Below, piece by piece: positions 29,675 through 31,114 of a stretch of 31,114 nt of DNA. Below the pieces are notes generated by a model. The model saw only the letters and a program-made list of their open reading frames with translations, had not been told where the DNA came from and did no database searches. Position numbers and translations under genes: made by a program. The DNA is from a virus: the UHGV virus genome UHGV-2113044; one strand, 5' to 3'. Position 1 is the stretch's first letter, and each line of letters opens with the position of its first letter.

Positions 29675-29763
29675 CGTTTAACAGCCTGCCGGACGGGCTG
29701 TCCTACCTTCTCAATCCGGTTGACGCCGGGTTAATTCCTTATACAGCACTTAAAGATGGCTCT

Positions 29764-30985
29764 TGTAGATTCAATCTGTCAATGCAACACCCCTTTCAAT
29801 TATCTCTTTCGGTGTTTTGAACTTCAGTGTCTTTCTCGGTCTGTTGTTTAGCTGAGCAGCAACCAGATCTAGTTCATGTTGAGTATATTGGGCAAGACAT
29901 GTCTTTTTAGGAAAGTACTGCCGAATTAGCCCATTTGTGTTCTCATTTGTTCCCCGCTGCCAAGGACTCTGAGGATCGCAGAAGTAAACTTTAACGCCGG
30001 TGCTGACAGTAAATTCTAGATGTCTGGCCAGTTCCATTCCTCTGTCCCATGTCAGTGATTTTCTGAGTTCTGACGGTAAACTCAGGAATTTGTCGGTAAG
30101 AGCCTGATTTACTGAGACAGAATCTTTGCCCCTGAGTCTAAGGATGATCGTATAACGTGATTTTCGGTCTACAAGTGTGGCTATATGAGAGTTTTTTGTA
30201 CCTGAGACTAAATCGCCCTCCCAATGCCCCAGAGAGCGTCTGTTATCGATATTTCGGGAACGTTCGTGAATTGGTGTTCCGTTCACTATGTTAATCGTAC
30301 CTCTTTCGCCTTTGCGGGTATGACGCCTGCCATGGCGAAGGCTATGCGACCGTCGCAGATGCTGTATATTCAGGTGGTGTAGCGCTTCACGGCTACGAAA
30401 GTACAGCGTTTTATAAATTGTCTCAGGTGATATTCGCAGCGTTTTTTGACGTGGTTTTGTTCGCCTTAACCATCCTGATATTTGCTCTGGAGACCATTTC
30501 ATCTCCAGCTTTTCCAGAACAAGCTTTCGCAATGGTAAATTTTGATCCAGTAAGCACGGTTTTGGCCTTTTCGCCATTCTGTTGGCTCGGTTATTAGCAT
30601 CAACAGCTTTGTAATAGCGTCTGCCCCGATTACGCTGAACTTCACGTGAGATCGTCGAAGGACTGCGATTCAGCGCAGTAGCTATCGCACGAATGCTCAT
30701 TTTGGCTGACAAACCAGCTCGTATCTCCTCGCGCTCAGACAGTGTCAGGTGAGCTACAGCCCGCTTACGCTCATGGGGTTTTATGCCGCCAGTATCCCTT
30801 AACATAGTGAAGATCGTTCCGGGTTTTGAACCCAGGATATTCGCTATTTCACTGAAGCCTGTTCCGTTCTTCCATAGTTCAAAAACAGAGGCTTTTTCCT
30901 CTGCTGTAAATGTTCGTCTCATTCAAAAAACCTCCGCAACCCCATGTTTTCACATAACTGTTGCGTTGACCAATTGAATCTACAA
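29764..30985 (-). mobile_element. IS30: IS30 insertion sequence (complete, about 1.22 kb)
   Basis: Terminal inverted repeats TGTAGATTCAAT... at both ends (29764 onward and reverse complement ending 30985) enclosing a 383-aa IS30 transposase. Confidence 0.9.
29771..30922 (-). CDS. insI: IS30 transposase
   Basis: 383-aa ORF MRRTFTAEEKASVFELWKNGTGFSEIANILGSKPGTIFTMLRDTGGIKPHERKR... matches the IS30 transposase (N-terminal HTH, C-terminal DDE domain). Confidence 0.92.
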   Translation of the reverse strand: MRRTFTAEEKASVFELWKNGTGFSEIANILGSKPGTIFTMLRDTGGIKPHERKRAVAHLTLSEREEIRAGLSAKMSIRAIATALNRSPSTISREVQRNRGRRYYKAVDANNRANRMAKRPKPCLLDQNLPLRKLVLEKLEMKWSPEQISGWLRRTKPRQKTLRISPETIYKTLYFRSREALHHLNIQHLRRSHSLRHGRRHTRKGERGTINIVNGTPIHERSRNIDNRRSLGHWEGDLVSGTKNSHIATLVDRKSRYTIILRLRGKDSVSVNQALTDKFLSLPSELRKSLTWDRGMELARHLEFTVSTGVKVYFCDPQSPWQRGTNENTNGLIRQYFPKKTCLAQYTQHELDLVAAQLNNRPRKTLKFKTPKEIIERGVALTD

Positions 30986-31114
30986 CCGCGCTCTTGATGT
31001 CCGACTCGCTGAACGGTTCACGATAGTTGCCAGACTGAGTGGATTTGCCCCTATATTTCCAGACACCTGTTATCACTTAACCCATTACTGGCTTGCTGCC
31101 GTAGATATTCCCGT

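Follow-up and report, generated by a model that had tools for sequence, protein, structure and literature searches.

Genome rearrangements caused by recombination between IS copies are classic in Escherichia coli and Shigella. The products (deletions, inversions, or replicon fusions) have flanks from different sites and no duplication around the IS, and such copies are found in E. coli AR_452 and GZ2408P. IS30 of E. coli K-12 is 1221 bp long, with 26-bp repeats and a 383-aa transposase containing HTH_38 and rve domains, and its insertion sites are alike and repeatedly targeted. It transposes by copy-out-paste-in, duplicates 2 bp of its target, and selects hot spots and IRs. For IS30, the literature describes deletions, inversions, and cointegrates, and also dimerization when two copies are directly oriented (PMC9333248). 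IS30A in IS911A of K-12 and IS30 in ISEc31 of many E. coli strains occupy the same position after an A6G motif, with AC duplicated. In phages, the closest comparison is the lambda G/GT-type tail assembly chaperone as arranged in SEN34-like temperate myoviruses, which have the chaperone gene at the same position, a slippery run, and a -1 DUF6889 ORF that ends at the start of the tape-measure gene.

The IS30 copy described here differs from K-12 IS30 in its unequal flanks (CT and AC), which we read as the record of a secondary rearrangement and not of a primary insertion. Compared with the insertions in IS911A and ISEc31, it keeps the right half of the target only; prophage DNA takes the place of the left half of ISEc31, and ISEc31 is also cut 55 bp downstream by an IS2-like element. 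In contrast to the copies in AR_452 and GZ2408P, one of its partner sites is a prophage tail-assembly gene. Compared with SEN34-like myoviruses, the chaperone extension (the product of a predicted frameshift) is cut short by IS30, and there is no tape-measure gene.

The prophage and its interrupted tail module

The analyzed stretch is UHGV-2113044 (31,114 nt, hereafter the window), and coordinates follow the numbering of the window. It carries a lambdoid prophage integrated at the lambda attachment site, with the att core GCTTTTTTATACTAA at 47-61. The first base of the window lies 46 bp left of this core, and no second att core (attR) is present in the window. The structural module is that of a myovirus; it shares ~95% identity with Escherichia phage vB_EcoM-689R2 and 83% with Salmonella phage SEN34. 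Rfam models identified RNA features in the late-regulatory region, and there was no Rfam match over 29500-31114 even at E<=1. The features of the prophage up to the IS are as follows.

135-1205, minus strand: integrase gene, with P'-arm-like sequence between the att core (47-61) and the gene
6252-6310, minus strand: Lambda_thermo (cIII thermoregulator), Rfam, 88.5 bits, late-regulatory region
15931-16002 and 16011-16083, plus strand: two adjacent tRNA genes, Rfam, late-regulatory region
29222-29674, plus strand: tail assembly chaperone gene, 150 aa (Pfam PF21822 Phage_TAC_15, E=4.9e-31)
29617-29629, plus strand: slippery run GGGAAATTTTTTG, candidate -1 frameshift site near the 3' end of the chaperone gene, read from the sequence
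29675-29763, plus strand: 5' part of the DUF6889 ORF, or -1 frame extension, cut by IS30 (Pfam and relatives)

As in relatives, the genes for the sheath (DUF3383) and tube (DUF3277) precede the chaperone gene. Its slippery run consists of the overlapping heptamers G_GGA_AAT, A_AAT_TTT, and T_TTT_TTG. In ten intact relatives, the chaperone gene is followed by a DUF6889 ORF of 54-58 aa and then by a gene of 661-668 aa at the tape-measure position; their -1 frame is open from the slippery run through DUF6889 up to the tape-measure ATG, and the intact extension matches Pfam PF21829 DUF6889 (E=1.5e-20). With a slippery heptamer near the 3' end, a conserved open -1 ORF, and the tube and tape-measure genes on either side in relatives, the chaperone/DUF6889 pair looks like a lambda G/GT-type programmed -1 frameshift, and an extended product is predicted by analogy. 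In the window, the -1 frame reads ...ALKDGS, continues for 18 residues derived from IS30 (CRFNLSMQHPFQLSLSVF), and then stops. Tape-measure or distal tail sequence is found nowhere in the window.

The IS that interrupts this frame has the following features.

29762-29763, no strand: CT, the dinucleotide duplicated by the prophage insertion, left copy (CT on both sides in EPSSH018; ten relatives)
29764-30984, minus strand: complete IS30, 1221 bp, with an IRR-type end at 29764-29789 and an IRL-type end at 30959-30984
29771-30922, minus strand: intact IS30 transposase ORF, 383 aa (Pfam HTH_38 and rve)

The element belongs to IS30 by its ~1.2-kb size, its 26-bp imperfect repeats, its single ORF for an HTH and DDE transposase, and its near-identity to the K-12 copy. 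The terminal inverted repeats match at 23/26 positions, and both transposase domains score above the Pfam cut-offs (HTH_38, E=1.6e-23, 82.6 bits; rve, E=4.1e-14, 53.1 bits). It is base-for-base identical to the RefSeq-annotated IS30 that lies in ISEc31 of E. coli ECONIH5, where the same DNA is labeled "IS30-like element IS30 family transposase." It differs at 2/1221 positions from the K-12 (XL1-Blue) copy and at 2/1221 from the EPSSH018 copy. The original prediction placed a complete IS30 about 90 bp past the chaperone stop, and the measured distance is 89 bp. It also placed the element where the tape-measure gene should begin, which is close to correct; the insertion is near that start, but it is 88 bp upstream of the ATG position in relatives and inside DUF6889.

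Flanking sequences of IS30

A simple IS30 insertion is bounded by a 2-bp direct duplication of its target. Here the left junction reads ...GATGGCTCT-TGTAGA and the right junction reads CTACA-ACCGCGC. The flanking dinucleotides are thus CT and AC, as predicted originally; a 2-bp direct duplication is missing, and the flanks do not rejoin to a target sequence.

The left junction can be compared with a related prophage in E. coli EPSSH018, which is ~2.5% diverged near the site. There, IS30 occupies exactly the same base, is oriented the same way, and lies between two copies of CT (CT-IS30-CT). After IS30, EPSSH018 continues with the rest of DUF6889, a 1986-bp gene, annotated "lytic transglycosylase catalytic," at the position of the tape measure, and baseplate genes. 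In the ten intact relatives the empty site reads ...gatggctCTgtcgattt, and the left flank runs on in relatives as CTGTCGATTTGTATGAC... through DUF6889 to the tape measure. Among complete E. coli genomes, 298 have the site without an insertion, and EPSSH018 alone has it occupied. Because EPSSH018 has CT on both sides at the same site with the tail genes following, the prophage insertion of the window began as a simple one. The simple insertion in EPSSH018 shows what was replaced in the window.

The EPSSH018 prophage (L001) has two further IS3-family insertions in its tail module, at 16744-17957 and 21132-22371. One of them is the same IS2-like element as at the end of the window and splits the spike gene. 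The tape-measure-position gene of EPSSH018 also has an internal stop. The family that includes the EPSSH018 and window prophages appears to accumulate IS insertions. A local deletion was also considered, by way of an IS3-family element that lies 3 kb farther on in the EPSSH018 prophage, and it was rejected, because that element is not ISEc31 and has no similarity to it.

The right flank had been described as 129 bp that could not be identified. It is 130 bp by count (30985-31114), and all of it matches known IS sequence.

30985-30986, no strand: AC, right copy of the target duplication of IS30 in ISEc31 (ECONIH5, ggctAC-IS30-ACcgcgc)
30985-31039, plus strand: ISEc31 fragment, 55 bp, IS3 family, IS911-like, starting directly after the A6G frameshift motif
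31040-31114, minus strand: terminal 75 bp of an IS2-like IS3-family element, comprising the inverted repeat and then the 3' end of the transposase gene; the window stops inside it

Positions 30985-31041 are identical (57/57) to ISEc31 in PK8275, AR_452, ECONIH5, and many other genomes, and two of these bases are shared with the next element. RefSeq labels these copies "IS3-like element ISEc31 family transposase." Uninterrupted ISEc31 in PK8275 reads ggctACcgcgc. In ECONIH5, IS30 lies in ISEc31 at the same position, in the same orientation, and with the same 57 flanking bases as at the right junction of the window, and there it is flanked by AC on both sides. An 87-bp probe spanning the IS30/ISEc31 junction was searched against 5426 complete E. 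coli genomes, and it was covered by at least 80% in 1061 of them; such junctions also occur on plasmids.

The last 75 bases of the window (31040-31114) are matched 75/75 in RM10410 and EPSSH018 by elements encoding WP_102384962.1. Four copies have unlike flanks as far as TGGATTTGCC, which places the terminus at 31040; we take this terminus to resemble the IRR of IS2. The junction between ISEc31 and the IS2-like element (31039/31040) was found in no complete E. coli genome. Two plasmid IS nests, in pEC96-94kb and p2018-01-1CC_1, were rejected as donors of the right flank because their IS30 is oppositely oriented relative to the IS3-family element. The right flank is IS debris and does not represent a new feature.

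The right flank also bears on the simplest reading of the locus, in which a single IS30 insertion lost its duplication by point mutation and the tape-measure gene continues to the right. The duplication is only 2 bp and could in principle be erased readily, and the IS30 is intact. However, the right flank is dissimilar to the prophage sequence that follows the site in 11 relatives and identical to ISEc31 plus the IS2-like end. This identity refutes the reading, which we give practically no chance of being correct. The original prediction that this is not a simple insertion is borne out, as the DNA right of IS30 is ISEc31 and the IS2-like end and not prophage. It had named a duplication together with an intact tape-measure gene right of IS30 as contrary evidence; the dinucleotides are CT and AC, and the sequence on the right is ISEc31.

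Origin of the rearrangement

Each parental junction is known from another genome together with its duplication (CT-IS30-CT in EPSSH018 and AC-IS30-AC in ECONIH5), and the window has one half of each. The IS30 of the window is probably a hybrid of two earlier, separate, simple insertions that were joined by exchange between the copies. Insertion A would have occurred in the prophage, inside the -1 extension of the chaperone (DUF6889), duplicating CT; by itself, it would already have prevented the extended chaperone product. Insertion B would have occurred at the ISEc31 hot spot just after the A6G motif, duplicating AC, in an ISEc31 copy that had the IS2-like element 55 bp downstream. Exchange between the identical 1.2-kb IS30 copies would then have produced one IS30 with the left flank of A and the right flank of B. 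Judged from the junction sequences, this exchange, with its mechanism and topology, is the likeliest course of events. The frequency of the IS30/ISEc31 junction (1061/5426 genomes) makes a second copy in the source genome plausible. In further support, the IS30 of the window equals the copy in ISEc31 of ECONIH5 at every base.

The simplest route for the exchange would be RecA-dependent homologous recombination, and site-specific dimerization of IS30 followed by dissolution of the dimer would give the same product. IS30 copies have 0-3 differences per 1221 bp, none of which is informative for the position of a crossover. Depending on the location and orientation of B, the outcome would be a deletion, an inversion, or a replicon fusion (for example, with a plasmid carrying ISEc31::IS30). 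With every outcome, the head, sheath, tube, and chaperone genes would be severed from the tape-measure and baseplate genes. In the case of inversion or fusion, a reciprocal hybrid would be expected, in which the left half of ISEc31 (...GGCTAC) is followed by IS30, CTGTCGATTTG..., and the tape measure.

A different route would involve de novo intramolecular transposition, in which an active IR-IR junction formed by the prophage IS30 targets the ISEc31 hot spot of its own replicon and causes an adjacent deletion or inversion. The old CT flank would be kept and a new AC flank gained, so a second pre-existing copy would be unnecessary. In favor of this route, IS30 has an intact transposase ORF, the prophage and ISEc31 targets agree at 11/16 bases of their left half-sites, and deletions and inversions by IS30 targeted to hot spots have been reported (PMC9333248). 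The ISEc31/IS911 site is also a true hot spot, because the same position is occupied in both orientations: ECONIH5 has one orientation, and IS30A in IS911A of K-12 has the other, each with its own 2-bp duplication. This hot-spot argument is based on the sites compared here and on PMC9333248. However, a fresh insertion must coincide in position and orientation with a junction that is present in very many genomes, and exchange between copies needs no such coincidence. Both routes predict the same sequence, and we consider the de novo route unlikely.

Hybrid IS30 copies also occur in finished genomes. In AR_452 (L016, 2310-3530), IS30 lies between two inverted IS911-type right halves (...gagcgcggt-IS30-accgcgctc...). 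In GZ2408P (L003, 4002-5222), an inverted right half is at the left (...gagcgcggt) and an inverted IS911-type left half is at the right (acggctttttttaatat...). A matching 2-bp duplication is missing from both copies; they are therefore hybrids, and hybrid IS30 copies are common.

The particular hybrid of the window, with both of its junctions, was not found elsewhere in complete E. coli genomes, species-representative genomes, IMG/VR, a metagenome set, or a gene-position index. These searches used exact junction patterns in viral, genome, and metagenome contigs, the ORF spanning the junction, and the 341-aa head protein of the prophage. All other public contigs of this prophage lineage stop inside IS30, 29 or 55 bases in, and the hybrid arrangement therefore rests on a single sequence. 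This raises an assembly chimera, in which the prophage and ISEc31 each carry an ordinary IS30 insertion and the two loci were misjoined across the 1.2-kb repeat. Breaks such as those 29 or 55 bases into IS30 are typical at repeats, the window itself stops after 75 bases of another repeat, as a contig would, and the arrangement was found in no other sequence searched. On the other hand, assemblers usually break at such repeats and do not misjoin them, as those same contigs show, and true hybrids are present in finished genomes. In addition, a deletion would leave one hybrid IS30 at the locus, unique if there were no other IS30, which could explain how the assembly traversed it. We rate a chimera as slightly less probable still than de novo transposition.

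With a hybrid formed by exchange between copies as the preferred explanation, the earlier suggestion of an IS30-mediated deletion or rearrangement that removed the tail genes holds in part. The rearrangement is supported. Causation by the IS30 transposase and removal of the tail genes are not established, as recombination between copies gives the same sequence and an inversion or fusion only moves genes.

IS30 targeting and prophage decay

Hot spots for IS30 may also exist in the prophage itself. Three prophage haplotypes (the window, EPSSH018, and metagenome contig OATE01000110) share both the base at which IS30 is inserted and its orientation. This base is 29764 in the window, 12543 in L001 (EPSSH018), and 8544 in L015, and the position is also occupied in L014. 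The flanks of the haplotypes are ~2.4% different right up to the junction (13 mismatches in ~520 bp). Their IS30 copies differ at 2/1221 positions, whereas an insertion of the same age as the flanks should show ~29 differences. The diverged flanks, the near-identical IS30 copies, and a left half-site like that of ISEc31 (11/16) favor repeated insertion over one old insertion. However, gene conversion among IS30 copies could mimic this pattern. We tentatively suggest, as a possibility short of an even chance, that the DUF6889 site of SEN34-like prophages (...CTTAAAGATGGCT-CT-GTCGATTT...) is an unrecognized natural hot spot for IS30 with repeated independent insertions. If so, recurrent IS30 insertion would be a specific route to loss of tail assembly in SEN34-like prophages, with later rearrangement by way of IS30 dimerization.

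A separate observation concerns the ISEc31 hot spot in E. coli O157 AR-0428 (NZ_CP044145.1). At ~1490-1515 (L025), its ISEc31 reads ggctAC-a-ACcgcgc, compared with ggctACcgcgc at 1491-1515 in PK8275 (L024). The extra 3 bp consist of a second "ac" and an "a," the last base of IS30, and look like an excision footprint of IS30. The ISEc31 transposase CDS of AR-0428 is in frame (1217 nt compared with 1214 nt).

The DUF2213/Pa193_gp24-like head gene (22800-23825) has a premature TAG at 23823, where relatives have CAG, and encodes 341 aa compared with 406 aa. This TAG is a second inactivating lesion of the prophage. The exact 341-aa product is encoded on 18 public contigs from several samples, indicating that a defective lineage circulates. 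The prophage of the window is defective, truncated, and decaying.

The locus is an ordinary IS-driven rearrangement in a decaying prophage; the IS biology behind it is established and already known, and the finding has little import beyond annotation. It is a clean worked example of how the history of an IS copy can be read from two half-duplications. It further cautions that a contig ending within an IS nest can simulate or conceal a rearrangement. The possible recurrent hot spot in the frameshift extension of the chaperone may be of small interest for the target specificity of IS30 and for prophage decay.
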